A stretch of 64,000 nucleotides of DNA from Candidatus Moraniibacteriota bacterium (GTDB lineage: Bacteria > Patescibacteriota > Minisyncoccia > Moranbacterales > UBA1568): the NCBI GenBank assembly GCA_013334575.1, contig JAAXXG010000002.1, forward strand, positions 69,377 to 133,376, written 5' to 3'. The number at the start of each line of letters is the position of its first letter. Position 1 is the first letter of the stretch. The position numbers and the translations under genes are program-made. This document shows positions 5,835 through 63,309 of this stretch, in pieces. Below the pieces are notes generated by a model. The model made no database searches, was not told where the DNA came from, and saw only the letters and a program-made list of their open reading frames with translations.

Positions 5835-6662
5835 TCAGGCGAATGCCTTCTTTATCCCCCGCACCTCCCTCAGAAGATCTTTCCTTTCCGGAAGAAATCG
5901 TCGGATAACATTCTCGGCATCGGAAAGATAGAGGTTTTCGATATTCATACGTACCACCTCGATGACGACATCGGGGTGATTCGCGCCCAGAGCTGCGGCC
6001 TGATCGTAATGCCGATCGTACAAGAGCTTCCGTAAGTAGACGCGAATATATGCCTCATTCGGCTCGTCATATTCTCTCGCAAGTTCGATCTTCCGCACCA
6101 AGCCGACTTCCTCGTCACGCAACACCTCCTTTGCCAGCTCACGTTTCTGATCCTCGGTAATCGTGAACTTCGTACTCTTCCGAAGAGGATCCCAGTAAGA
6201 ATCCGCCTGAAGAAGGTTTTTATATATCAGTTTCTCGATATCGATGCGGACTTTCGCATCACTGATATATTTTCCGACCCAGTCGAGTTCCGCCGGTGTT
6301 ACGATCATACGTCTCCGTCTCCGTTCTTCGCAGAAATCCCGGAAGCTTTCGAACATTTCCCCATCATTCGTTAAAGATAGGGCATCGGGGCAAAGCGCAA
6401 TGATACTATCCAGCACCTCCAGCTTTTGAAACTCAAAAGCCCCCTTTCTCGAAACGATATACAGGAACGCTTCCTTGGTCAGTTCCCGAAGTTTGCCTCC
6501 GCTCAGGTCATTCTTAAGTACCTTTAAGCGAATCCACGGGTTACGAACGTTTTCGATCAGTGACATGATTCCCCCTTGCGATTTGAGTCCGTCGACTTGT
6601 TTGTTGGCAAAGAAAAGCCCTTGACGGCTTACTACTTTCATGAGCAGCATTCCCGATGCCAT
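5835..6662 (-). CDS. hypothetical protein
   Basis: 275-aa ORF with coding-like composition. Preceded by an AT-rich intergenic region 6663-6860. Confidence 0.4.
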   Translation of the reverse strand: MASGMLLMKVVSRQGLFFANKQVDGLKSQGGIMSLIENVRNPWIRLKVLKNDLSGGKLRELTKEAFLYIVSRKGAFEFQKLEVLDSIIALCPDALSLTNDGEMFESFRDFCEERRRRRMIVTPAELDWVGKYISDAKVRIDIEKLIYKNLLQADSYWDPLRKSTKFTITEDQKRELAKEVLRDEEVGLVRKIELAREYDEPNEAYIRVYLRKLLYDRHYDQAAALGANHPDVVIEVVRMNIENLYLSDAENVIRRFLPERKDLLREVRGIKKAFA

Positions 6663-6857
6663 AAATTCTGATATCGCAAATACTGCCCAAGAAATAACAG
6701 GACAATCTTAACGAACAAGATAAATATTTTAGCATTATTTATAATTTTAGTCAATTACTTGCACATTCATAGAAAAATCAGGGCTTGTACAAGCCCTGAT
6801 TTTTCAGAAAGCGCATTTCGGAAAAATTGCCGCTGTACACCAACCGACAACAATCAT

Positions 6858-37063: not shown

Positions 37064-37100
37064 ACAGTAAAGACGCCTCAGTGGGGCGTCTTTTATGTTT
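37064..37100. terminator. bidirectional terminator / REP-like hairpin between miaA and the RAYT gene
   Basis: aagacgcc tcagtgg ggcgtctt stem followed by TTTATGTTTGATTT. The stem core gacgcc/ggcgtc resembles copy 3 of the palindromic element. Confidence 0.5.
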
Positions 37101-37632
37101 GATTTATCGGATTCTCCTCATCCGTATCCCATTCCCGAGGATTGATACGGATATATTCCTGGATCAACCGTAGAGACTCCTCGTTCCGGATAATATGATC
37201 ATGGAATCGCGATTGCCATGAGAATCCGGATTCGGCATGCGACGCCCGGATTCTTTTCGTACAAACAGATTTGAACGACCCGACAATCGTCGCCAAAGTC
37301 GGTCGTTTTCGTGGTTCACTGTTTTCCGTAGAGACGGGGCATGCCCCGTCTCTACACGGAAGGATCTCGATGATTCCGTGAACATGATTCGGCATTACAA
37401 CAAATTCATCCGTTCGGATATCTCGAAAATGGTCCGGGATACTACCCCAGCAATCCCGGACGATTTCCCCGATTCCGGATAATGTCATCTCCCCGTTTTC
37501 GATATCGCCGAACCAGAGACACCGATCCGCGGCACAGATGGTCACGAAATATGCGCCAGGTTGGGAATAATCATATCCGGGTAAGCGTGATGATCGAATC
37601 CTGTATTTGCCTTTGTAGTTATCCGCTACCAT
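37093..37632 (-). CDS. REP-associated tyrosine transposase (RAYT, IS200/Y1 family)
   Basis: YRIRSSRLPGYDYSQPGAYFVTICAADR; HuH motif VVMPNHVHGIIEI; C-terminal WQSRFHDHIIRNEESLRLIQEYIRINPREW. Flanked by REP-like hairpins. Confidence 0.75.
   Translation of the reverse strand: MVADNYKGKYRIRSSRLPGYDYSQPGAYFVTICAADRCLWFGDIENGEMTLSGIGEIVRDCWGSIPDHFRDIRTDEFVVMPNHVHGIIEILPCRDGACPVSTENSEPRKRPTLATIVGSFKSVCTKRIRASHAESGFSWQSRFHDHIIRNEESLRLIQEYIRINPREWDTDEENPINQT
37327..37354. repeat. 28-nt palindromic element, copy 2, inside the RAYT coding sequence
   Basis: gtagagacggggcatgccccgtctctac, read on the minus strand as CRDGACPVST. Confidence 0.75.
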
Positions 37633-37818: not shown

Positions 37819-39300
37819 CTACGCCTCCAGTCTTTTCCGGAGTATCTCGGAAACCACCTGCGGATTCGCTTTTCCTTTGGTTTCCTTCATCACCTGGCCG
37901 ATGAGGAACTGAAACGCGTTCTGCTTTCCGGCATGGTAATCCTCGACAGACTTCGCGTTCGCGGCAAGAATCGCGTCGACGATGCCTTCGAGCTCCCCCG
38001 TGTCGCTCACCTGCGCGAGATTGAGCCGGTCGATGATATGCGACGGATCGTTATCCTCGCCCTTGAGCATCTCACCGAGGACCGTCTGAGCTGCGCTCGA
38101 ATTGATTTTTCCATCGGCAATTATCACGATGAATTCCGCATAGTTCTCGGGAGTGATTCCCGACTCACTGATGGTTTTTCCGGATTCGACCAGTCGTTTT
38201 CGCAATTCGGTCACGATATAGTTCGCGGCGAGCCGGATCGCCTTCTCCTCCCCGGCGACCAACTCCTTGGAATCTTTCTTTTCTCCGATCTCGCTCACGA
38301 CCGCTTCGAAATAATCCGCGGTCGGCTTCTCGGCGGTGATCACCGAGACCGCTTCAGACGACAGTCCGTATTGCTTCGCAAACCGTTCTTCCTTGGCTGC
38401 CGGCAGTTCGGGAATGGTCAGACGGAGCGCCTCGATGTCCGCTTCCGAAAATGAGAAAGGCGGGATGTCCGGCTCGGGGAAATAGCGGTAATCGTGCGCA
38501 GACTCCTTCTTGCGCTGCGAAACGGTTTTCTGTCCGTTCTCGTCCCATCCGCGCGTCTCCTGTTCGATCTTCTCGCCCGATTCGAGCGCCTTCGTCTGTC
38601 GGGCGATCTCGTATTCGATCGCCCCGGCAACCGCCTTGAACGAGTTGAGGTTCTTCACCTCGACCTTGGTACCGGACAGCCGGTCCTCACCTTCCGCATA
38701 CAGCGAGATATTCGCCTCGCAGCGCATCTGTCCCTTTTCCATGTCCGCGTCCGAAATGTCGAGATACCGGAGGATCTGCCGAAGCTTCTGGCAGAAGAGC
38801 CGCGCGTCGGCGGCGTTGTCGATATCCGGCTCGGTCACGAGTTCCATGAGCGGCACCCCCGAACGGTTCAGGTCGACCAGGGTATGTTTGGTACCGGCGG
38901 GATGATACAGCTTGCCGGTGTCCTCCTCCATGTGGATCCGGGTGATGCCGACCGTCTTGCCCTCGCGGATCGTGAGCGCCCCCTTCCCGCAGAACGGTTC
39001 GTCGTACTGCGAGATCTGGTAGCCTTTCGGAAGATCGGGATAGAAATAGTTCTTGCGGTCGAACTTCGAGTGCCTGGCGAGTTCGCAGCCGAGCGCGAGT
39101 CCGGCCCGCTGCACCGATTCGATTGCCAGCCGGTTCGGAGTCGGAAGCGCTCCGGGCTGTGCGGTACAGACCGGGCAGATGTGTACGTTCGGTTCGGCCT
39201 CCTGTCCGAGACCGTTCCTGCACGAGCAGAACATCTTGGACTCGGTCCGAAGCTCGACATGGACCTCCATACCGATGACGGGAGTGTATTTCATAATCAT
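37819..39300 (-). CDS. gatB: Asp-tRNA(Asn)/Glu-tRNA(Gln) amidotransferase subunit B
   Basis: MIMKYTPVIGMEVHVEL N-terminus and C-terminal GatB/YqeY tail. The upstream ORF extension is Arg-rich read-through. Confidence 0.9.
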   Translation of the reverse strand: MIMKYTPVIGMEVHVELRTESKMFCSCRNGLGQEAEPNVHICPVCTAQPGALPTPNRLAIESVQRAGLALGCELARHSKFDRKNYFYPDLPKGYQISQYDEPFCGKGALTIREGKTVGITRIHMEEDTGKLYHPAGTKHTLVDLNRSGVPLMELVTEPDIDNAADARLFCQKLRQILRYLDISDADMEKGQMRCEANISLYAEGEDRLSGTKVEVKNLNSFKAVAGAIEYEIARQTKALESGEKIEQETRGWDENGQKTVSQRKKESAHDYRYFPEPDIPPFSFSEADIEALRLTIPELPAAKEERFAKQYGLSSEAVSVITAEKPTADYFEAVVSEIGEKKDSKELVAGEEKAIRLAANYIVTELRKRLVESGKTISESGITPENYAEFIVIIADGKINSSAAQTVLGEMLKGEDNDPSHIIDRLNLAQVSDTGELEGIVDAILAANAKSVEDYHAGKQNAFQFLIGQVMKETKGKANPQVVSEILRKRLEA

Positions 39301-39337
39301 ATGACAGATAGCACTGAACGGATGGCGGGGAACGGAG

Positions 39338-39763
39338 TCACTGCCTCCCCGTACTCCCGAAATGCCCCTCTCCGCGTATCGTAGCATCGAGCTCCGAAAC
39401 CTCGCAAACCTCCGGAAGCGCGATCGGCACGACGAGCATCTGGGCGATCCGCTCTCCCGACGCGACCTCATACGGCTCATCCGAGGTGTTGAGCATGATA
39501 ACCTTCCATTCCCCGCGATAGCCGGAATCGATGACGCCGCCGAGATTCGTGATCCCGTGCTTCGCCGCGAGCCCGGACCGGTCCATGATCAGTCCGACGT
39601 ACCCCTCCGGGATCGCGATGGCGACCCCCGTCGGTACGATGCGCCGCTCTCCGGGACCGAGGGCGGATCCCTCCGTCGCGTACAGGTCGAGACCGGCATC
39701 GCCCGGGTGAGCGCGCATCGGTAACACCGCATCCGGATGGAGTCGTTTTATTTCCAGTTTCAT
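39338..39763 (-). CDS. dut: dUTP diphosphatase
   Basis: MKLEIKRLHPDAVLP ... AGLDLYA ... GVIDSGYRGE motifs. 141 aa. 4-nt overlap with tmk. Confidence 0.85.
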   Translation of the reverse strand: MKLEIKRLHPDAVLPMRAHPGDAGLDLYATEGSALGPGERRIVPTGVAIAIPEGYVGLIMDRSGLAAKHGITNLGGVIDSGYRGEWKVIMLNTSDEPYEVASGERIAQMLVVPIALPEVCEVSELDATIRGEGHFGSTGRQ

Positions 39764-42800: not shown

Positions 42801-43185
42801 AATCCCTCCGCTTTTTTAACTTGCCGATATTCCGTTTTCCGATGCGGGAAATTATCGCACGGACATCGGAACCTGTCAATCGCGATCCCTTCCCGTCGTC
42901 CGTCATCCCTTTGTGTATGAGTGCACGTTCCGTCATTGGAGGAGGACCTGATCTGCATTCACGGATTGACTCGGAATGTGTTCCGTGCTATCGTACCGCT
43001 TTGTGGTCTTCTTTCACAATCGCACGGTGTCCGGCCTTCCTCCCGCCGATATGGTGGGCGGGCGGCCGGACATCGTACCGGCATGCGCTTCGGGCTTCCC
43101 GTCGGAAGGGTCGGCATCATAGTGATGCCTGTATCCTGCCGATTTCCGGCATACCGATGGAACGACCGAATAAACAAATGACGTC

Positions 43186-43767
43186 ATGAGAGCCGTAACT
43201 GTAACAAACGAGCGACAGGAACCGAAAATCACGGTCGAGAAAAAGTTCATCATCAAAGAGGTTGACCGCTGTGGAATCCGGTTGTCGCGAGGTAAAAAAG
43301 AGCCCGTTTTCGTCCTGGTCGGAGAGCGTGATGCTTCCATCGTGAGACGGTCGACCGACTCGAAAACATCCTTCTTCGTCGACCGCATCGGACTCTCCCG
43401 CCGAATGACAGATTTCGGAGACTGGCGATACCGGCTTGTCGATGAACGATTCGGCCAGCGATATCCGAACGACTCCGTCCTGATCCGACTTATCATCGAT
43501 TCAGGAACCGATGATAGCTGCAAGATCCATTACGATCCCGCGGTGGAGATGATCAGCGTGCAGACCTACGCCAAAAAGGAATCTGAGCAAATCTTCACCC
43601 GCTCGGAGGCGCTCGCCATTCTCAAACCGGGACAGTCCCTCTTCGCCGAACGGCATGGGAGCGGCATCGACAAACCGTACGGGTGCATCAGAAACCATAA
43701 CGGACGGATCGAGGTCACCTGGAGCGAATCCAAGGACGATCTGCCTGCCCTCTTCTGCACCTACTGA
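43186..43767 (+). CDS. hypothetical protein
   Basis: 193-aa ORF with no motifs recognised. Confidence 0.4.
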   Translation: MRAVTVTNERQEPKITVEKKFIIKEVDRCGIRLSRGKKEPVFVLVGERDASIVRRSTDSKTSFFVDRIGLSRRMTDFGDWRYRLVDERFGQRYPNDSVLIRLIIDSGTDDSCKIHYDPAVEMISVQTYAKKESEQIFTRSEALAILKPGQSLFAERHGSGIDKPYGCIRNHNGRIEVTWSESKDDLPALFCTY

Positions 43768-43914
43768 TCCGGCAACCGATTATCCGAAACCCTTCGTCAG
43801 CGCACGGAGGGTTTCAATTTTCAATACCTTCCAACCCGTTACGAACCAGAGCGTCTTTTTTTTCCGCTTTGACGTCTCGGGATAAAACCTGCAACACCGC
43901 CCGAATCGTCACGA

Positions 43915-44015
43915 GACGACAGCGGGAAGGTTTTTTCGTTTCAAGCCCCTCCTTTCCGATTTCATCAAAAAAATGAGGCTCATATAAGCCTCATTATTTG
44001 ATCGTTTCGGATTTC
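43915..44015. repeat. intergenic repeat element A (about 100 nt, terminator-containing)
   Basis: Near-identical to B at 44677..44774. Contains a hairpin aatgaggctcatataagcctcatt with an A-run before and a T-rich run after, acting as a bidirectional terminator. Confidence 0.7.
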
Positions 44016-44132
44016 TGACAAAATGAAAGCGTTTGCCTCAGGCAACACCCGGAATTTTGACAGCACCGAAAGAACCCTATAACATGCCAAAAAAAGCCCT
44101 TTCCCATCAACCGAACGATTCCCGGAGGCAAC

Positions 44133-44624
44133 ATGCGAACGCAACGAAGCTATTATCTCGCCGCATTTCTTGGCGCGCTATATGCGCCGATTCTCGGGAC
44201 GGTCTACCCGGACGCCTTGTCGATCGAAGTACCGCTTAGTGTATCCGTAACAGTTGCGGCCGTCTTTATACTGGTCTTCTCCACGCTCCTTCGAAGAAAC
44301 GGTTTCCGCTCCGCGCTTGGGGTAGCGGGTTACCAACTGGCATACCTGACAACTCTACTGTCGCTCGCGGTACAATATCTTAAACATGGAACCGGAGCAG
44401 TCGCTCCCGCCTTCTTCGGAACATTCGCCCATTCTTCCGTTACTGTTCTTTCCTCGATTCAAGACGAGAAATTCCTACTGGTATTTATCTGGACGGCTGT
44501 CGCCATGAACAATGCCATGGTGTACCTTCATCCGCCAATCCACGTATTGTGGACCGTCGCCCTCATGTTCTACGTCCTCTACGGACTGTCCGAGGAGCCC
44601 GAGACGATCGCTCCGGAATCGTAG
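44133..44624 (+). CDS. small integral membrane protein
   Basis: 163 aa with 5 hydrophobic helices. Flanked by repeats A and B. Confidence 0.45.
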   Translation: MRTQRSYYLAAFLGALYAPILGTVYPDALSIEVPLSVSVTVAAVFILVFSTLLRRNGFRSALGVAGYQLAYLTTLLSLAVQYLKHGTGAVAPAFFGTFAHSSVTVLSSIQDEKFLLVFIWTAVAMNNAMVYLHPPIHVLWTVALMFYVLYGLSEEPETIAPES

Positions 44625-44676: not shown

Positions 44677-44774
44677 ACGACGGGGAGGTTTTTTCGTTTC
44701 AAACCCCTCCTTTCCGATTTCATCAAAAAAATGAGGCTCATATAAGCCTCATTATTTGATCGTTTCGGATTTCG
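44677..44774. repeat. intergenic repeat element B
   Basis: Same element as A, with an additional upstream stem cctccccg ... cggggagg followed by TTTTTT. Confidence 0.7.
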
Positions 44775-44864
44775 GGCAAAATCTGAACCTATGAACGTCC
44801 CTCGTGATCCGGTAAGAAAGAAGCCCGTGTTCTTGGAACACGGGCCTCGAAAAGAACATACCTG

Positions 44865-46029
44865 TCAGAGGTTCGTCATGATGGCCTCCCCCATCGCCTC
44901 GGTACCGAGAATCATATCGCGGTTATCAACCAGCCTCGCCAAATCCGCGGTACGATATCCCGCCAAAAGCGTCTTCTCCACCGCCTTCTCGATAGCCCCC
45001 GCACCAACCTTCGCTCCGATATGACGAAGCATCATCGCAGCCGTCAGGATCCGACCGATAGGATTCACCTTATCCTTCCCCTTAAGGTCGCAGGCCGTTC
45101 CCGCTCCGCTCTCGAACATTGCGGAACCGGTTTCCGGATTCACGGCGGAACTGCACATCATACCAAGACTTCCCAGCATGCCAGCAGCGCCGTCGGAGAG
45201 AATGTCGCCGTGTTCGTTTCCGCACATGATGACTCCCGCAAGCTTCATCGGCATGCCGAGCAGTGCGTTCGCCGCATCGACATACAGATGGGAAAGCGGG
45301 ACATCGGGGAATTCTGCCTTTCCGATCTCGGTCGCCATTTTCCGCCACAGTACGTAGCGAGCCATCACGTTCGTCTTATCGATCGAGATGACCGGAAGAC
45401 CGCGCTCCCGGGCATACCAAAACACGGCACGCATGTACTTCAGGAGCGTCTCGCGACGATAATAGGCAAGTTCAACGACCGCCTCCTCATCCCCGACGAC
45501 TTCCTTCTTCAACTTGATCATCAACTGGTCCCGCACTCCGCAACCGATATGATCATACAGATCCGAAGTGCCAAAGTAACTGTCCTCGAGCAGCATCCGG
45601 ACGAAAACCTGTACTATACCATCCGATGGGATATTTTCCGGCCGCACGAGACACAGATGATCCAGCGACTTGTGATAGACGACCGGCCGGAAGTTGAGCA
45701 ACAAGCCCATTTCCTTGCGCAGGGCAAGTAATGCCCGTGCTTCCGGCATCATCTCCGGATGTTTCACGCCGAGCGTCTTATCAATCTCAGTATCCCCCAC
45801 TCCTCCGAAGAAGAGTGTCCCGATCTCCACTGCTCGTTTCAACGACTCGGCAGGAAGCGTATCGCCGAATTCCCTGAAGGCGTTCCACCCCATCGGCGTT
45901 TTTTCGAAGACGATCTCGATACCGTCCTTTTTCGCGGCTTCGATGGCGACCGCACATGCGGCCGCCATCATTTCCGGAGCCGCCCCGTCGCCCGTCACGA
46001 GCGCGATTCGAACTTCCCTTCCTTCTTTC
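44865..46029 (-). CDS. isocitrate/3-isopropylmalate dehydrogenase family (LeuB-like)
   Basis: IALVTGDGAAPEMM, a GSLGMMCSSAV region and a dehydrogenase C-terminus. Start assigned to TTG at 46027-46029, preceded by AAAGGAGGG, to avoid a 115-nt overlap with the upstream gene. Confidence 0.7.
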
Positions 46030-46051
46030 AAGAGTCCCTCCTTTTGTTGAT

Positions 46052-48019
46052 TTACAGCTTTCCTTCCGCCTGCAATCCGGCGGCTGTCTCGAACATGAAC
46101 GGGATGACTCCGCCTTTCCTGAGCAGCTCCTTCTGCAGCCAGGTAAGCTTGAACGGAATCTCCCACATGTCCTCACCCGCCGTACCGACGCGGACCACAC
46201 CCTCGTCCGGAAGCACTTCGACCGTGTCCGGTCGCCTCTCACGCAGGTCATTCATGACCTCGTCCGGGAGTTCGACACACAGCAGGCCGTTCGCAAACAT
46301 GCTGGCACTGAAAATACGTGCGAAGCTCGACGCGATAACGCATGTGATTCCAGCCTCGAAAAGGGACCAAGGAGCATGTTCACGCGACGAACCGCAACCG
46401 AAGTTCTTACCAGCGACCAGTACGCTCGACCGGAACAGCCGTTCCTGTTCCTCCCCGGTCAGGTCGACCCCTTCAAGACAGTGCTGTCCAAGCCCGGTTT
46501 TCACGGACGTCGTCAGGTACTTCGCCGGGATGATGACATCCGTATCGACATTGTCCCCTCTCTTCCCCTGGAGATACAAGACTTTCCCCGAGAACTCCGG
46601 CTTGACCGTGATGCGCGTGGCCCGATGCAGTACGCCGTAGTCCGGCCGACTCAACTCGGTCACCCCATCCCAGTCTGTGAGATTGAGCGGATGACCTTCT
46701 TCGGACATGCTCGCGATATCGTCGAGCACACGTCCACACAGCTCCGGACTCGGCACCGCGACGCTTCCCGTCATGGCCGACAACGCCGCCACCGCCGGAG
46801 AACAGAGATGCACCATACCGCCCTTACCCATCCTTCCCTTGAAGTTCCGGTTACTGGTCGAAATGCACACCTCTCCGGGAGCGAGGACGCCTCCGCTCAT
46901 ACCCAGGCACGGTCCGCACGTCGCTGACATGACGACGCATCCCGCGGCCATGAATACATCGATGAGACCCTCATACAAAGCTCGCCGATAGATATGCTGC
47001 GTCGCCGGAATAACGATACACCGCGTACCGTCAGCGATCCTGCCGCCGAAATCACGCATGATGCCGGCCGCGATGCGCAGGTCTTCCAGGCGTCCGTTCG
47101 TGCAGGATCCGATGAACACCTGCTGAAACGGCATACCCTCCAGATCGGACGCTGGCACGACATCGGCCGGGGTATACTCCACCGTGATGAGCGGCTGCCT
47201 GTCAGTCACGTCGATCGTGATGACCTGATTATACTCGGCATTCGGGTCGCTGTTCCACGCCAGCAATTCCTCTTCCTCATATCCCGCCGACTCGATGAGC
47301 GGCCGCAGATATTCGATGGTCTTGTCGTCCACCGCCACCATACCGGATGTCGCCCCGGCCTCGACCACCATGTTCGTCATGGTCATCCTCGCCTCCATGC
47401 TGAGCGCCTCCACGACCGGCCCGCCGAATTCGATGACCGCATTCGTCGCGCCGGCAACTCCCATCACCTCGATCAGCATCAGGATGAGGTCCTTGGCGAA
47501 CACGTTCGCCGGGAGTGTCCCGACATACTCGACGCGGATCACCCGCTGAGGCTGACAGAACCAGAGCTCGGTCGAAACGGCCGCCATCATCTCCGAAGTC
47601 CCGACTCCCGCGGTAAGCGCACCGAACGCGCCACCGGTACAGGTATGACTGTCACCCATGACGGCAATCTGCCCCGGGAACAGCCACCCGCTCTCGGGAA
47701 AAAGCGCGTGACAAACGCCCCCCTGCCCCGCATCGCGGAATTCGATGCCGTGTTCCTTACACCATTTTCGCAGCGTATCGGCCTGAAACGCCGTCGCCTC
47801 GTCGTTGGACGGGCAGACGTGGTCGATCGTCGCTTTTATCCTGTTCGGATCGAATACCACGTCACAGCCGCGGGCCTTCATGTCCACGATACCAGGAGGC
47901 GTCGTGATTTCATGACAGAAGACCTGATCCACTTTCAGCACCATGGTCCCGTCCGGAAGCGTTTTCAGCAAATGCGCATCGACGATTTTCTGATACGCCG
48001 TTTTTCCTCGTTTCTGCAT
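46052..48019 (-). CDS. aconitase-family hydro-lyase, fused large+small subunit (LeuC/LeuD-like)
   Basis: 655 aa. Fe-S cluster cysteines in GSCTNGR and TCGPCLG contexts, and a LeuD-like swivel domain at the C-terminus. Confidence 0.8.
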   Translation of the reverse strand: MQKRGKTAYQKIVDAHLLKTLPDGTMVLKVDQVFCHEITTPPGIVDMKARGCDVVFDPNRIKATIDHVCPSNDEATAFQADTLRKWCKEHGIEFRDAGQGGVCHALFPESGWLFPGQIAVMGDSHTCTGGAFGALTAGVGTSEMMAAVSTELWFCQPQRVIRVEYVGTLPANVFAKDLILMLIEVMGVAGATNAVIEFGGPVVEALSMEARMTMTNMVVEAGATSGMVAVDDKTIEYLRPLIESAGYEEEELLAWNSDPNAEYNQVITIDVTDRQPLITVEYTPADVVPASDLEGMPFQQVFIGSCTNGRLEDLRIAAGIMRDFGGRIADGTRCIVIPATQHIYRRALYEGLIDVFMAAGCVVMSATCGPCLGMSGGVLAPGEVCISTSNRNFKGRMGKGGMVHLCSPAVAALSAMTGSVAVPSPELCGRVLDDIASMSEEGHPLNLTDWDGVTELSRPDYGVLHRATRITVKPEFSGKVLYLQGKRGDNVDTDVIIPAKYLTTSVKTGLGQHCLEGVDLTGEEQERLFRSSVLVAGKNFGCGSSREHAPWSLFEAGITCVIASSFARIFSASMFANGLLCVELPDEVMNDLRERRPDTVEVLPDEGVVRVGTAGEDMWEIPFKLTWLQKELLRKGGVIPFMFETAAGLQAEGKL

Positions 48020-48182
48020 GTTCGTCCCCTGTTTTCGTTGAGTGAATATACTATTTGTTAAACAAAACGGATCCTACAGTGCAGGATCTCGTGCCATTCC
48101 GATATACCAGGAAACGACTCGTATAGCAAGCGGATAATGACATTTACGACTTCAAACCGTCTTTTGGCCACAATCTTCCCAG

Positions 48183-48238
48183 TTTCACCAAAAAAATGAG
48201 GCTCATATAAGCCTCGTTATTTGATCGTTTCCGATTTC
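48183..48238. repeat. intergenic repeat element C (core of the A/B family)
   Basis: tttcaccaaaaaaatgaggctcatataagcctcgttatttgatcgtttccgatttc. Confidence 0.65.
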
Positions 48239-48284
48239 GGGCAGAACCGGGCAGATTCTGGAAACGTTACATAATCTGACGACC

Positions 48285-48401
48285 GCATTATTTTGTAACG
48301 TTTTCTGAGCGATGGATGGAAACGACTTGGTAGATGATTGTGTCGATCGCGGTCACGGTCAGCACCGGCATATCGTCTTCCGTCGCACGGATGAGGTTCA
48401 T
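48285..48401 (-). pseudogene. detached 5' fragment of the GNAT acetyltransferase gene (copy X)
   Basis: rc encodes MNLIRATEDDMPVLTVTAID ...; the first ~50 nt match the start of 50113..50574. Confidence 0.5.
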
Positions 48402-48556
48402 AGCGACCCAGCTCTTCAGGATCGTATCAGGCCCCTTTTCCGATTCCAGATAGCGTTTCGTTCCGTCAATTATTTTTTTCCACGCGAGCGGAATGTTTTT
48501 TTATCTAAAAAAAGCAGGTCCCACATTCGTGAGACCTGCTAAATACTCTCCTTTCA

Positions 48557-50008
48557 TCAGAAATTGCCGCCTCCGCCTGCGCCTGCGGTTTCACCTCCGC
48601 CAAAGGAGATGCCGCTGTCCGGGGTTGAACTCGAATAAATCGGACTCGGACTATATGGCGAAGAAGGACTCGCGACATATGGGTGGCCACCCTCATCGGA
48701 CCGGCTTGACCTGTGCGATACGCCGGACGAAGCATGACTTCCTGACGGCCGTGCGGAGAACGACCGCTGCGGCACGTATATCGACTTCGGAGCAATCTCG
48801 TCGACTGCGGATTTCCTGATCGACCGTGCTTCGTCGTTCAGCAGTTCAAGCAGCAGCGCCGCCTGTAAGAAGTCGAACTGCTTCGGACTCGGCTCTCTCA
48901 ACAGATCCCGACGGAGACTTTCATACGCCTGCCGCTGATCTTCACAGCGATCGCGAAGACGCTGTGAGACACCTGGCTTTCGGACCGCGTCTTCGGCCCG
49001 ATTGATGGCGACACCCGCAGCATCAAGCTTCGCATCGATACCGGATACCGTCTGACGAGCTCCGCGATATACCCTCATCAGCCCGGACAGTTGTGCGATA
49101 AGAGAAACGGCTGCATATCTCGCACCGCTCCAGCCGGTCTCATCAGAACGCTCACCGATACCGGACAACAATCCGTTGAATTTCGATGCTATGTCCGCAG
49201 CCTTCTGACGGGCTTCCATAATGGCAGCATCGGTGACGTACTGACCGGCATTGTCGAGTTGCCGGTTGAAAGAGTCCATCTCCCGATTGAAATCAGCCTT
49301 GAGTTGCTCCACCGCCGCACGACGGCTCCTGGCCCTGCGAGACCGAGCGAACAGATACCGGATTCCGACCCCGATTCCGACTATAGCGAGTACGACGAGA
49401 AACGCCAACAACACGTCTTCGGCTTTCGCATCTGATTGAGCTTTGCCGGTCGCTTCAACCCGCTCTATGCTCTGCTGATGTTCCGTGGAGATCTTCGGCC
49501 CGAGGACCGTCATGATGTCCCGCGACATCTGTTCAAGCGCCGGACCGATATCACCAGCTCGCAGACTACTCGCCAGCAACGGCTTCGCACGGTTGAAGAT
49601 TCTCCCGCATTCGGCATCCGTCAACTCCGTTTCAACCCCCTTTCCGGTCGTAATCCTGACTTTCCGAGGATTGGTGCAGACCGTTATCAGGACACCGTAG
49701 TCGTCACCTTTCTGTCCGATGCCGGTCTCGTGAAAGACGTCGACTGAATACTGCTCGATCGTCGCCCTTCCCGCAAAGTCCTTCGTCGTAAGCACGACGA
49801 TCTGGACCTTCGAATCCTTCTCATACCCCGAGAGAAGCTGATTCAAGTCCGACTTTGACGATTCGGAAATGATACCGGCGAGGTCCGTAATGCGCTCCGT
49901 GAGTTTCGGAAGTTCTTCACCGTTCCCTTCAGCCGCGAATGCCGTTCGGCACCCGTGAGAGAGAAGGAGCAGCAAGAACACCGCCAGAACTTTCATGATT
50001 TTCCTCAT
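48557..50008 (-). CDS. TPM-domain (TLP18.3/Psb32/YgcG-like) membrane protein with Gly-rich C-terminus
   Basis: Signal peptide, TPM-like KVQIVVLTTKDF ... DDYGVLITV ... RKVRITTGKGVE, a TM helix, a long charged linker and a GGGETAGAGGGGNF tail. Confidence 0.6.
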   Translation of the reverse strand: MRKIMKVLAVFLLLLLSHGCRTAFAAEGNGEELPKLTERITDLAGIISESSKSDLNQLLSGYEKDSKVQIVVLTTKDFAGRATIEQYSVDVFHETGIGQKGDDYGVLITVCTNPRKVRITTGKGVETELTDAECGRIFNRAKPLLASSLRAGDIGPALEQMSRDIMTVLGPKISTEHQQSIERVEATGKAQSDAKAEDVLLAFLVVLAIVGIGVGIRYLFARSRRARSRRAAVEQLKADFNREMDSFNRQLDNAGQYVTDAAIMEARQKAADIASKFNGLLSGIGERSDETGWSGARYAAVSLIAQLSGLMRVYRGARQTVSGIDAKLDAAGVAINRAEDAVRKPGVSQRLRDRCEDQRQAYESLRRDLLREPSPKQFDFLQAALLLELLNDEARSIRKSAVDEIAPKSIYVPQRSFSARPSGSHASSGVSHRSSRSDEGGHPYVASPSSPYSPSPIYSSSTPDSGISFGGGETAGAGGGGNF

Positions 50009-50112
50009 GCTAGACTCCGTGTTTTCGTTGTAGGATGCTATTCACTTATAAAAAATACTTCGGTATACGATAATACAGAATATGAATTCTGTCAAACCAA
50101 TCTCTCACTTTC

Positions 50113-50574
50113 TTATATAGAATCGTCTCTTTCTTTCGTGTCACACTCCCTCGTCATGATGATCCGAGGCTGTCCGTCGCCGTAGAGATTATCCTCCCGA
50201 CCGGAAGCGACGAAGCCGAGCGACTCATAGAGCTTCACGGCGTGATTGTCCGGGTGAACGTCGAGGCTCACGCGGTCGAATTCCCGCAATTCCTCGAGCA
50301 GCATTCCCATAGCCTTTCGGGCCAATCCCCTCCGTTGGAACTCGGGCGCGATAATAAGTCCGCTCACGTAGGCATAATCGGTATCCTTCACCCGGTAGGA
50401 GATATCCCCGACGATCACTCCGTCCTCCTCGATCAGATAGACAGTCTCGTCGCGGATCCACTGCCGCATCTCCTCGTCGGTGAAACCCCAGTTGTAGACA
50501 ATCAGATCCCTCGCGGTCTCCTCGATCGCGGTCAGTACCGGCATATCGTCTTCCGTCGCACGGATGAGTTTCAT
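50113..50574 (-). CDS. GNAT family N-acetyltransferase
   Basis: MKLIRATEDDMPVL start, acetyl-CoA motif RRGLARKAMGMLLEEL. 153 aa. Confidence 0.75.
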   Translation of the reverse strand: MKLIRATEDDMPVLTAIEETARDLIVYNWGFTDEEMRQWIRDETVYLIEEDGVIVGDISYRVKDTDYAYVSGLIIAPEFQRRGLARKAMGMLLEELREFDRVSLDVHPDNHAVKLYESLGFVASGREDNLYGDGQPRIIMTRECDTKERDDSI

Positions 50575-50745
50575 AAGATCACATATCATTCATGATCGTA
50601 TTCCTCTCCTGTTTTGATAGACTATCAACAAAAATATCGCCTTTCCAAGCCATAAAATGACACTTGATTTATCTAAGATTTTATGATATCATAAAACGTT
50701 GTGCCTTCATAATCTATAAGCATACTCTCGAGGAGGAGAGTCATC

Positions 50746-51192
50746 ATGCCAAAACTTCTCAAATACGGGCTTTCAACCCTGGGCGTCTGTGGCATTTTTG
50801 CGATTATCATCGTAGCGATGCTTAGCCGCGGGACTTTCGGTCATCTCGTGCCACTATCGGACGAGGATCTGAAAACGATTACCGAGGTGACTACGCAGGA
50901 TTCGAATTCATCCATCGCGTTCCGTTCCCATTCGGAAATACTACGGTGCGGCCCGCTTTCGCTTCGAAAAACAAGCCGCATCTCGGCATTCGTTTTTCGT
51001 GGAGAACCTATCTCGGCGCGCAAGACCGTCATGTACGGTTCACTCCGGTTCGGCAACCAAGCAGACGAAATGATGCCCCCGCTCCGAATACCAGACGGTG
51101 CGAACTCAATGTACTGGTATGAATGCGGCAACACCACCGTATCCCTTGGATCCATACCGGATCCGCATATCGGAATCGGATTCAATTTCTGA
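50746..51192 (+). CDS. hypothetical membrane-anchored protein
   Basis: GAGGAGG RBS, N-terminal TM helix, 148 aa, followed by a terminator. Confidence 0.4.
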   Translation: MPKLLKYGLSTLGVCGIFAIIIVAMLSRGTFGHLVPLSDEDLKTITEVTTQDSNSSIAFRSHSEILRCGPLSLRKTSRISAFVFRGEPISARKTVMYGSLRFGNQADEMMPPLRIPDGANSMYWYECGNTTVSLGSIPDPHIGIGFNF

Positions 51193-51196
51193 AAAA

Positions 51197-51240
51197 AAAC
51201 GGCCGACACGTCATAACGAGTGTCAGCCGTTTTTTCATTC
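51197..51240. terminator. bidirectional intrinsic terminator
   Basis: A-run, then the cggccgacac ... gtgtcagccg stem with one mismatch, then a T-run. Confidence 0.5.
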
Positions 51241-51292
51241 CCTTGTAACACCGAACAACCGCGTAACGCTTCAACATCCGAAACGACCCTAT

Positions 51293-51390
51293 GCGATCAT
51301 GACCATTGCATTGAATTTGCCGTCCTTCTCGGTCTCCTCGATCGCAGTCAGCACCGGCATATCGTCTTCCGTCGCGCGGATCAAGTTCAT
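51293..51390 (-). pseudogene. detached 5' fragment of the GNAT acetyltransferase gene (copy Z)
   Basis: rc encodes MNLIRATEDDMPVLTAIEETEKDG... then a stop after 32 codons. About 90% identical over ~60 nt to the start of 50113..50574. Confidence 0.5.
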
Positions 51391-51394
51391 AGGA

Positions 51395-51850
51395 CTATAA
51401 GGAATCGCTCGTCTTGTGGAACGGCTTCCCGGTTTCGAGGAATGAAAAGATTCCCGCCTTGAGGGAATCGGGAAGAATGTGATGCTCGCGAAGCGAATCC
51501 GCAGATACGACCGCGAACTCGAGATGATCCTCCTGCGATCCGAGAGATATTCCCGTCGGAACCCGGACCTCGAAGACGAAATTCACCTCGTGCTGACTCG
51601 ACGTCTCCGATATCGGAAATGCGTTTTCGCAGACACCGACGAGATCGCCGATCAGATAGTCTCCCTCTCCGAGTTCCTCGACGAGTTCGCGGGCGAGCGC
51701 CGATCGTGCGGATTCCCCGTCTTCCACGTGTCCCCCTGGCAGAAAATTCCAATCCTTGCCCTTCAATCGACAAAGGATCACGTCTTCGCCTTGCCGAAGC
51801 AGCGCCCGCGAAATGAAATGTATATGCGATTCAGGAGCTTCGTAGGTCAT
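51395..51850 (-). CDS. NUDIX hydrolase
   Basis: Canonical Nudix box GGHVEDGESARSALARELVEELGE. Confidence 0.75.
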   Translation of the reverse strand: MTYEAPESHIHFISRALLRQGEDVILCRLKGKDWNFLPGGHVEDGESARSALARELVEELGEGDYLIGDLVGVCENAFPISETSSQHEVNFVFEVRVPTGISLGSQEDHLEFAVVSADSLREHHILPDSLKAGIFSFLETGKPFHKTSDSL

Positions 51851-51859
51851 ATATAATCA

Positions 51860-52411
51860 TTATTCAGATAGCTTACGAAATATATCCTCATTAAGCAATT
51901 CTTCAGATGTTTTATTTATTTCGTTTAGATATGAACGCAATGTTTTTAAATCTAGTTTAATAAAATCCCCATATACCCCATCTTTATCGACGCCAATTTT
52001 CGTCAATACGACAAAGTCATTGCCCATTTCCAACCAACGAGCGTGTATAGCCTTATTCCTTATTACGGCCGCTTCTTTTAATCTCAAATGTAATGATGCA
52101 TACAAAGAAGACAACTCCGGTTTTCCAACATGTTTGCACATGGGAACAAAAAAATCTCTAAACAAATCGACTTTTTGTGAAAAAGTTAGTTTCGCAATAA
52201 CCGTGTAGCCTAAATCACTGGACCTAGAATGAATAAAACTAGTTAGCACATCATCAAGAACACTCTCAAGATAATTAAAGTCCAATATAATTTCCCCAAG
52301 TATCAGCTTTATTTGCTTCAATTTCGCAGCTGATATCGTTGTATCGAAATCATGATTAAAACTCCCATCATCGAGATATATTTTCATATAATTATTTTGG
52401 TTTCGCTCCAT
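51860..52411 (-). CDS. hypothetical protein in an AT-rich island, possible HEPN-like domain
   Basis: GC drops sharply over 51860-52440. R-x4-H motif in AAVIRNKAIHARW. 183 aa. Confidence 0.4.
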   Translation of the reverse strand: MERNQNNYMKIYLDDGSFNHDFDTTISAAKLKQIKLILGEIILDFNYLESVLDDVLTSFIHSRSSDLGYTVIAKLTFSQKVDLFRDFFVPMCKHVGKPELSSLYASLHLRLKEAAVIRNKAIHARWLEMGNDFVVLTKIGVDKDGVYGDFIKLDLKTLRSYLNEINKTSEELLNEDIFRKLSE

Positions 52412-62083: not shown

Positions 62084-62704
62084 TCAGATCGAGCCGGCGG
62101 CATAATCGTAATCGCGCAACGAGACCGTGGATTGCAGACTCGTTCCGAGCGAGGAAGTCGGTGATTTCTTCACCGAAACAAAGACGGTCACCCGACCGAC
62201 CGAACCGCCCGGAGGATACTCCGTCGGATTCCTGGACGGGGTAGCTTCGAAATGTCCCGTCACCGACGAACCGCTTGAGGCGGTAAGGTTCTGCCACGAA
62301 CAGGAGGGGCTGCCGCACGCGTTCAGAATCCCGGACGTACACTGCGTCTTGACGCTGGTAATCGGCCCGCTTACGGACATCCAACGAGCCTGGATCGCCC
62401 CGGTTCCCGCATCGAACCGGTATCCGAAACAACGGCTGGTCGAATGATCGAAAAAGGTCATGGACTGCGAGGCGGCTTCGATAACCGTACTCGTCCGCAG
62501 GTATTTCGAAAGCGAGTTTACGGCGTACTGCGCCGACTCTATGTCGCGCTGGATTTCGCGAGAATTCCCGAACATGGAAAAAGCCGAGGAGGAAATAGCC
62601 GAGACTCCGGCAGATATCACCGCAAAAATTCCGATAGATACGATAAGCTCCACGAGGGAGAATCCCCGCATCTTCCGTTTCCTGGTTCCGCGCTTCGGTT
62701 TCAT
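62084..62704 (-). CDS. type IV pilin-like protein (prepilin N-terminal cleavage/methylation domain)
   Basis: Basic leader MKPKRGTRKRKMRG, then FSLVELIVSIGIFAVISAG. Confidence 0.6.
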   Translation of the reverse strand: MKPKRGTRKRKMRGFSLVELIVSIGIFAVISAGVSAISSSAFSMFGNSREIQRDIESAQYAVNSLSKYLRTSTVIEAASQSMTFFDHSTSRCFGYRFDAGTGAIQARWMSVSGPITSVKTQCTSGILNACGSPSCSWQNLTASSGSSVTGHFEATPSRNPTEYPPGGSVGRVTVFVSVKKSPTSSLGTSLQSTVSLRDYDYAAGSI

Positions 62705-62727
62705 ACTTTTCTTCGGACGGGATAATC

Positions 62728-63309
62728 CTACGGCCCCCATGGCGTAAGCGTCGACTCCGCGTAGACACAGCCGTTTCCGGCGCGACAATTCGCCCGGATA
62801 TCGGCCGCGTTCGCCGTATTGGAATACGACCCCCAATATACCGCACTGACACAGGTCACCTGTTCCTGCTGAGTGCCGCTCGAATAGGAAAGATATATCC
62901 TCCGTTTGAAACGCCCGCTGGTTCCGGTATGGATATAGTGCCCGCCGGACTCCGCCAGATCGAACGAAGACTGTCCGCAGGATATCTTGGTCGCCGGCGT
63001 ACTGAGCGCGGAGCTGGTAACGTCGATCCGGCAGTTGCTCGCGCTCCAGGGAGCGGACGACGTCGGCAGCCACGCGGTCAGGCTCCGATTTCCGGCCAGG
63101 ACGTTGTTATCCTTCACGTTCTTCAGGAGTTCAATTCCTTCCTGCGCGAGTTCGGATGCGGCGACGGTGTCCCGACTCCGTAACGAGGCATTGAATGCCT
63201 TCGTCGCCGATAACAGCACCGGAAGGATGCCGATAGTAAGAACGGCCACCGAAAGAAGTACTTCAAGGAGCGAGAAGCCTTTCAGATGTTTCGGTCTTGG
63301 ATTCCTCAT
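62728..63309 (-). CDS. type IV pilin-like protein
   Basis: MRNPRPKHLKG, then FSLLEVLLSVAVLTIGIL. Confidence 0.6.
   Translation of the reverse strand: MRNPRPKHLKGFSLLEVLLSVAVLTIGILPVLLSATKAFNASLRSRDTVAASELAQEGIELLKNVKDNNVLAGNRSLTAWLPTSSAPWSASNCRIDVTSSALSTPATKISCGQSSFDLAESGGHYIHTGTSGRFKRRIYLSYSSGTQQEQVTCVSAVYWGSYSNTANAADIRANCRAGNGCVYAESTLTPWGP

Follow-up and report, generated by a model that had tools for sequence, protein, structure and literature searches.

In a 64,000-nucleotide (nt) stretch of a Candidatus Moraniibacteriota genome (GenBank assembly GCA_013334575.1, contig JAAXXG010000002.1; the whole stretch is called the window), the start of a GNAT acetyltransferase gene occurs three times, once at the head of the intact gene (copy B) and twice detached from any gene body (copies A and C). 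We found that the interval holding these copies is probably a plasticity zone driven by homologous recombination, in which displaced GNAT copies decay to stubs. Our best reading is that the copies are cassette boundaries recording successive insertions, the detached ones being remnants of displaced GNAT genes and not regenerated attachment (att) sites. Coordinates are collected in Table 1, and related loci are designated by L numbers.

All three copies are in the same orientation, on the minus strand, and share a 23-nt core, ACCGGCATATCGTCTTCCGTCGC, without a single mismatch. No further site for this core was found in the window when up to three mismatches were allowed, and 100 shuffles yielded 0 matches. 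Homology among the copies begins 2-3 nt 5' of the ATG. Copies B and C are identical at 60/68 positions, through +68, and copies A and B at 49/54, through +54. Past +54, copy A carries a 6-nt insertion and a gap, followed by decayed similarity up to about +95-100; it matched model positions 1-27 of a hidden Markov model (HMM) of the GNAT N-terminus. The differences among the copies are mostly synonymous (CTC/TTG, CGT/CGC, GTA/GTG, ACC/ACT), so divergence took place while they were coding sequence. Identity among the coding starts is 88-94%, whereas their leaders are unrelated or weakly related, those of copies A and B being weakly similar. Copy A opens an open reading frame (ORF) of 37 amino acids (aa; 48288..48401) and copy C one of 33 aa (51289..51390). 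The original prediction, made from the letters of the window, had described three direct copies of the gene start, with short truncated ORFs opened by the detached ones, and had called for a search for a conserved core common to all three; each of these points was borne out.

Read in gene direction, the locus begins with a HAD hydrolase gene, a low-GC ORF of 183 aa, the NUDIX hydrolase gene, copy C and ORF148, which lies on the opposite strand with a hairpin terminator. It continues with copy B and the GNAT body, the TPM-domain gene and its terminator, a leader, copy A and a terminator-bearing repeat. The two predicted segments are indeed delimited by the copies, the protein-coding content of the first being ORF148 only and that of the second the GNAT body and the TPM gene only. 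The description of the region as lower in GC holds only in part: its intergenic parts fall to 0.43-0.48, and the TPM and GNAT genes are at 0.54-0.58 against 0.60-0.63 in the neighbouring leuCD-like gene.

The surroundings of copy A are those of a once complete gene. In the single-copy lineages L007, L010, L008 and L004, intact GNAT is preceded by a native leader of about 48 nt, GAATCGGAAAAGGGGTCAGGTAC...TGAA...ATG, which is conserved across lineages with only 73% protein identity. In the window this leader sits before detached copy A, not before intact copy B, whose leader is diverged. On the other side, the tail of stub A is homologous to positions 13208-13387 of L007 and 1255-1385 of L024, before the terminator repeat (z > 24), and, in L003, to what lies immediately downstream of the GNAT stop codon. 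Because of these matches we assign the tail to the native GNAT 3' flank.

Further evidence came from locus L169, where a TPM homologue (83% nt identity), a terminator, the native leader and the ATG are followed by a GNAT gene that lacks codons ~5-95 and keeps codons ~96-137. At the equivalent place the window keeps only the first ~100 nt of GNAT (codons ~1-30). Two different deletions at one position mean that a complete second GNAT gene once stood behind the TPM gene. Judged from these alignments, copy A is demonstrably a decayed, formerly whole gene: as expected of a pseudogene, another lineage carries an independent and different truncation, evidence that covers copy A only. The original prediction had named independent paralogue N-termini of intact genes as an outcome that would refute it. 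The finding comes close to this, in that copy A derives from a gene that was once complete, but the paralogues are now dead.

The GNAT protein was placed in Candidatus Moranbacteria, a lineage within the Candidate Phyla Radiation. We examined 160 loci encoding the GNAT family, from genomes and metagenomes, with an N-terminus HMM, a body HMM and per-locus self-searches. Detached GNAT starts were confined to the closest clade (GNAT at least ~72% identical), where about 5/10 lineages bear stubs (window/L001, L168, L003, L005/L009 and L024). Roughly 150 more distant loci of the family gave no stubs with the HMMs and self-searches. Within the clade, the interval between the dCTP deaminase gene and thyX differs from genome to genome, and one intact GNAT gene is kept. 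Comparison of the segments across related genomes, as the original prediction had proposed, placed the copies at the borders of gene blocks that vary.

The layout was found in four independent assemblies. The sister metagenome-assembled genome (MAG) L001 (GCA_013336155.1), 99.4% identical, has all three copies; the Logan contig L002 covers GNAT and TPM and terminates inside copy A; and in a separate MAG, L168 (GCA_013336235.1), the NUDIX gene, a stub, an ORF148 homologue and GNAT are collinear with the window at 88% identity. Since it is repeated in the L001, L002 and L168 assemblies, the layout is, on this comparison, genuine and older than the split of these lineages. Conceivably, strain variants could have been joined chimerically during assembly at a k-mer they have in common, as every source is a metagenome assembly and L002 ends inside copy A. 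Against such an artefact, which the original prediction had listed as grounds for its refutation, the window and L001 share the three copies with sequence differences inside copy A, and the C-ORF148-B arrangement recurs in L168; its probability is negligible.

Stubs were found next to the genes that would have been their former neighbours, namely NUDIX-N1 (window, L003, L168), an Na-type NUDIX (L168) and a GDSL gene (L005/L009), and each such pair has an intact GNAT gene downstream. The cargo behind the stubs is ORF148 in the window and L168, a second NUDIX gene, N2, in L003 and L168, and Fic/RhuM in L005/L009. Copy C is orthologous to stub s2 of L168. Its ATG lies 4 nt after the NUDIX stop codon, and the same holds for its counterparts in L003 and L168, whose NUDIX-N1 orthologues (91% and 89% aa identity, respectively) are each followed by a GNAT stub. 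In the distant relative L062, a NUDIX-like ORF ends 8 nt before an intact GNAT gene. From this arrangement, copy C looks like the stub of a GNAT gene that was once translationally coupled to NUDIX. The window lineage and L003 are collinear (89%) over NUDIX-N1 and into the stub as far as about +60, with unrelated DNA beyond.

The alleles of stub and intact gene were then compared within loci. The L003 stub is identical at 50/60 positions to L008/L010-type alleles and at 44/60 to the resident gene; stub and intact gene thus belong to different lineages, and no simple local duplication took place in L003. Copy C of the window is equidistant (60/68) from copy B and from the L003 and L007 alleles, and in L168 the stub and the intact gene are 97% identical. 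L003 also carries a 40-nt stub of the NUDIX-N2 gene start (6738-6777), which is joined in frame to N1, and a third, decayed GNAT stub in which the ATG has changed to ATA (6628-6662). A unit of GNAT stub, spacer and N2 start is present there twice in tandem (6628/6738 and 7257/7397). L024 carries a GNAT 3' stub.

The duplicated L003 unit and the 97% identity in L168 are what one would expect if the stubs arose by local events without foreign DNA, GNAT-containing units being duplicated in tandem and the redundant bodies then deleted. We consider this unlikely: the leaders of A, B and C do not share the similarity of their coding starts, the L003 stub falls in another allele group than the resident gene, and the cargo between copies (ORF148, TPM, Fic and differing NUDIX families) is not duplicated material. 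Alternatively, selection could have kept the stubs as short upstream ORFs for translation initiation or coupling of the next gene. Stub ORFs in L003 and L168 (s1) are open and stop 1-4 nt before the NUDIX-N2 ATG, and the in-frame fusion of the N2 stub to N1 in L003 points the same way. In the window, however, no gene follows either stub, C ending before a convergent terminator and A before the terminator repeat. In L009 the stub is closed by a stop at codon 17, leaving about 110 nt to the Fic gene, and one L003 stub has no ATG. Selection is therefore a very unlikely explanation, although some stubs in L003 and L168 may be retained for feeding translation of the next gene, which is not applicable to the window's two.

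Strain-level exchange was detected at copy A itself. Downstream of it lie three direct copies of a terminator repeat (72-128 nt; hairpin GAGGCTTATATGAGCCTC with a 7-bp stem, then a T run), which enclose ORF163 and a leu segment. In L003 the repeat comes after the GNAT stop codon, and in L007 and L024 it is duplicated; in L007 a homologue of ORF163 lies between that genome's own two repeats. The sister L001 has a single terminator repeat and is without the ORF163 and leu segments (4.16 kb). Divergence between window and L001 is 0.63% overall. We found 17 differences in 48200-48399 (stub A and its tail), making copy A a mismatch hotspot, and 34 in 43000-44015, with baseline values beyond; copies B and C showed no differences. 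The two peaks bracket the 4.16-kb indel. By this profile they are the trace of one homologous-recombination import, with its left crossover at copy A and its right crossover in a 193-aa gene. As the recombination tract ends at copy A, the repeats act as ordinary homology patches.

We propose the following course of events. In the dCTP deaminase-thyX interval, one GNAT gene would persist while its neighbours are exchanged between strains via anchors of shared sequence, these being the GNAT gene itself, its leader and its terminator. Blocks consisting of a gene X, a leader and GNAT would enter from related strains, possibly taken up by transformation, with GNAT as anchor, and the usual outcome would be a swap of content. 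If a block carrying a GNAT copy or 5' part of its own is inserted without replacing the resident content, two tandem GNAT starts would result. The original insertions may have followed one of two routes. In the first, homologous joining on one side would be combined with illegitimate joining on the other, the non-homologous end joining inside the resident gene. In the second, a circularised fragment carrying only the 5' part of GNAT would enter by a single crossover. The outcome would be a truncated copy beside the old neighbour and an intact copy beside the new block; where two whole copies result, as would be the case for gene A, the redundant one would be deleted piecemeal. The redundant copy would decay to a short stub that is still attached to its former upstream neighbour.

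Applied to the window, copy B would be the working gene, brought in together with ORF148 and a new leader. Copy A would be what is left of the gene that resided there originally, between its native leader and its native 3' flank, and copy C the stub of a GNAT gene formerly coupled to NUDIX. Later exchanges may in turn use the stubs and terminator repeats as short patches of homology. A precedent exists in sequential displacement arrays, whose formation has been explained by homology-facilitated illegitimate recombination with no integrase involved (Kirchberger et al. 2017, PMC5361080). We found features of such arrays here: remnants attached to a former neighbour with the intact copy by the newest block, remnant and intact copy of different lineages (in L003), and a finished array moved between strains by homologous recombination (the tract between window and L001).

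Several points weigh against this explanation. Four independent stub ends all fall within the first ~100 of 435 nt. A simple model draws the crossover point from a uniform distribution, places the joint with equal probability anywhere from the gene start to that point and spares upstream genes. It gives roughly 0.1 for 4/4 joints within 100 nt, a value that is compatible with the explanation, not comfortable. The 5' bias of the joints is partly expected, since the GNAT start directly adjoins upstream genes that must stay undamaged; it is also compatible with a more specific process. Among the ORF148/TPM cargo homologues sought, no donor layout (ORF148 beside GNAT without a stub) was found, and we therefore infer the direction of events. 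A resemblance after stub C (...DG....MV...*) had raised the idea that this stub keeps the GNAT 3' end by an in-frame internal deletion. The idea was rejected when eight GNAT 3' regions were used for local alignment, with shuffled sequences as controls (z < 2), and only the stub-A tail was significant, matching the native 3' flank. Natural transformation in the window organism is only suggested, by a pilin-like ORF (62084-63073, minus) with a prokaryotic N-terminal methylation motif, which is compatible with a type IV pilus or competence apparatus. Finally, a trans-acting recombinase may be encoded elsewhere in the genome, as the search described below covers the 64-kb window and the annotated flanks of relatives.

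The original prediction had favoured successive regeneration of att sites by tandem integration, or a cassette array using the GNAT 5' region as recombination site. In a dedicated site-specific system of this kind, the first ~60 nt of GNAT would be the attachment site for a recombinase encoded elsewhere, and the site would be regenerated with each insertion, giving an integron-like or tandem array. Different cargo behind orthologous stubs (ORF148 in the window, NUDIX2 in L003) would fit such a system, as would the occurrence of four or more independent junctions within +47..+100. In nearly all cases the last copy is the intact one, as in an ordered array, and the limitation of stubs to one clade would suit a lineage-specific system. 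The stub ends, however, vary, lying at +68 (C), about +58 (L003, L168 s1), +47-60 (L009) and about +100 (A), and an identical core at a fixed crossover position, as in att copies, was not found.

No integrase or recombinase was detected in the 64-kb window by a motif screen and Pfam searches of the ORFs, and no recombinase in the precomputed Pfam lists for the flanks of L001, L003, L004, L005, L167, L168 and L169. The sole candidate is a RAYT-like ORF (37093-37632, minus) 11 kb away, which matched NF047646 (REP-associated tyrosine transposase) with 63 bits, under the cut-off of 80. This IS200/RAYT-type ORF is syntenic after gatB in L001 and L003. Nucleotides 1-69 of GNAT are about as conserved as nucleotides 70-420 across 8 lineages, and the nucleotide-level constraint that a DNA site would impose on the 5' end was rejected on this ground. 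Among the inverted repeats reported for 46-54 kb, none lies within the GNAT 5' copies; we found neither an attC-type imperfect palindrome in each cassette nor an integron integrase (IntI) adjoining the array. The degenerate core and the GNAT protein had no matches in viral contigs, the 3.2-kb region had no blastn matches in phages or plasmids, and no att sequence on a free element (attP) was seen.

The same geometry also occurs with unrelated sequences, namely the N2 gene start in L003, the GNAT 3' end in L024 and the terminator repeat in the window, and stub A has the history of a whole gene described above. Taken with these results, a dedicated site-specific system is highly improbable. Regeneration of att sites does not agree with the variable stub ends, the lack of an integrase and the lack of extra conservation at the 5' end. 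What stands of the cassette reading is that the copies bound variable gene blocks, with further stubs and other cargo in L003, L005/L009, L168 and L024; a dedicated cassette array is not supported.

A broader idea is that Moranbacteria, and perhaps other bacteria of the Candidate Phyla Radiation (CPR), gain genes by a recombinase-light accretion in which the start and terminator of one small conserved gene act as docking sequences, producing ordered, integron-like arrays of single-gene cassettes. We attach little credence to it. The cargo of such arrays may comprise NUDIX, Fic, TPM, membrane ORFs and the leuB/leuCD pair, and the driver may be a trans-acting enzyme or a route by transformation plus RecA that favours joints in the first ~100 nt.

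Table 1. Positions of the gene-start copies, repeats, genes and segments in the window
Feature	Position	Strand	Remarks
Copy A	48334-48405	minus	GNAT 5' stub of resident gene; stub feature 48305..48401
Copy B	50507-50578	minus	first 68 nt of intact GNAT coding sequence 50113..50574
Copy C	51323-51394	minus	GNAT 5' stub, -3..+68; ATG at 51390
Intact GNAT acetyltransferase gene	50113..50574	minus	Pfam PF00583 and related families, family alignment
Native GNAT leader	48402..48450	minus	GAATCGGAAAAGGGGCCTGATAC...TGAA..., before stub A
Native GNAT 3' flank	48175..48304	minus	stub-A tail and terminator repeat copy 3 (48175-48246)
NUDIX hydrolase gene, N1 type	51395..51850	minus	Pfam PF00293
Segment 1, between copies C and B	50575..51322		ORF148, hairpin terminator, AT-rich region
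ORF148	50746..51192	plus	membrane or secreted protein without known family
Hairpin terminator in segment 1	51194-51235		
TPM-domain gene with terminator	48498..50008	minus	gene 48557..50008, terminator 48513-48540; Pfam PF04536, terminator scan
Terminator repeat copy 1	43952-44023	minus	direct copy
Terminator repeat copy 2	44710-44781	minus	direct copy
Terminator repeat copy 3	48175-48246	minus	direct copy
ORF163	44133..44624	plus	opposite-strand membrane ORF between terminator repeats 1 and 2
Segment between terminator repeats 2 and 3	44782..48174	minus	leuB-like and leuCD-like genes
leuB/IPMDH-like gene	44865..46166	minus	
Fused leuCD/aconitase-like gene	46052..48019	minus	655 aa; NF001614, 479 bits, above cut-off

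The genes around the copies were examined individually. Segment 1 holds a roughly 170-nt AT-rich divergent promoter and leader region, and the sole homologue of ORF148 is found in L168 (82% aa identity), in the same stub-flanked position. The last ~14 codons of intact GNAT (below ~50155) are unlike those of relatives, and homology with L168 stops at 50155. The TPM segment is 83% identical at the nucleotide level to positions 1-1525 of L169, the match ending at 48498; the TPM gene has this one homologue, which lies at a contig end. For the native leader, Rfam gave sub-threshold noise only, and its motif has one exact occurrence in the window and forms no genome-wide repeat. A known RNA element or genome-wide repeat was rejected on these grounds; the leader may be a promoter or regulatory element. 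In L168, N2-type and N1-type NUDIX domains are read as a single fused ORF of 339 aa (1271-2290). In L003 they are separate genes, in the opposite order to the L168 fusion.

The leuB-like and leuCD-like genes form a strain-variable cassette, and genes of central or amino-acid metabolism are unusual cargo in CPR genomes. Because the ORFs as called share 115 nt, the leuB-like gene probably starts further downstream. The 183-aa ORF (51860-52411, minus) has a GC content of 33-37% against 55-63% in its surroundings. Neither Pfam nor PADLOC gave a match for it; it was seen only in the window and L001, and so looks recently acquired. The 193-aa ORF (43186-43767, plus) is conserved downstream of the variable zone in L001, L003 and L007; it had no Pfam match and a marginal PADLOC match to a type IV Cas6 model (E = 0.0012). 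Apart from this, PADLOC gave only a weak NUDIX match (PDC-S07), and with matches of this strength a defence island was rejected. Elsewhere in the window, 38000-38499 and 39000-39499 show 106 and 24 differences per 500 nt, respectively, against L001, compared with about 2-5 in other parts; these patches are probably other recombination tracts or an indel.

We compared the locus with known systems. Type VI secretion system (T6SS) effector-immunity loci, Rhs loci and contact-dependent inhibition (CDI) loci contain arrays of orphan or displaced modules (PMC5361080). As there, homology is anchored in a conserved gene, modules join without the help of an integrase, old partners and fragments remain, and finished arrays pass between strains by ordinary homologous recombination. 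In the T6SS, Rhs and CDI arrays the 5' region is constant, and orphaned 3' ends and immunity genes accumulate downstream under selection for immunity. At the GNAT locus, in contrast, 5' stubs accumulate upstream of a small housekeeping-like gene in a CPR host, and we found neither a toxin-immunity logic nor any defence annotation. An experiment in E. coli yielded partial duplications of 109-950 bp of the homologous gene when circular molecules integrated by single crossovers (PMC3240628). The likeness is that one-sided homology inserts foreign DNA and a partial gene duplicate flanks the insert. Homology-facilitated illegitimate recombination and single-crossover integrations of this kind (PMC3240628 and works cited there) were observed in the laboratory, in E. 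coli, Acinetobacter, Pseudomonas and Streptococcus, whereas the mechanism at the GNAT locus is deduced from end products, and the GNAT duplicates, at 47-100 nt, are shorter.

Integrons are similar in their small, mostly single-gene blocks, a recurring direct sequence of 60-130 nt and a newest block beside a fixed point. The GNAT locus differs in having no IntI and no attC palindrome; its repeat is a coding gene start with variable ends, and stub A is a decayed gene. Elements of the SXT/R391 family integrate in the 5' end of prfC and supply it with a new 5' end and promoter. Likewise, the segment from copy C to copy B supplies GNAT with a new leader and 5' coding end, the old 5' end being left behind. 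SXT is an element of ~100 kb with its own integrase and a defined att core, whereas the segment here is 0.75 kb long, holds a single small ORF and lacks a recombinase. Minimal mobile elements of Neisseria are gene blocks between conserved flanks that are exchanged by homologous recombination after transformation. The difference between window and L001 is of this type, a clean tract that swaps cassette content between conserved flanks. To our knowledge, minimal mobile elements have not been described as leaving tandem gene-start stubs.

The GNAT locus is thus a new example, in a CPR bacterium and with mirror geometry, of the known pattern of displacement with orphan fragments. It documents the repeated replacement of genes rather than a mobile element of a new kind. 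For annotation, the short ORFs 48288..48401 and 51289..51390 should be taken as gene remnants, and repeated gene starts do not necessarily imply an att site. CPR bacteria have tiny genomes and are not cultivable alone, and their gene gain is poorly documented. The locus is a hotspot at which the gain, replacement and decay of genes can be read step by step, exchange at the strain level included, and it points to homology-anchored recombination, not integrases or transposons, as the driver.

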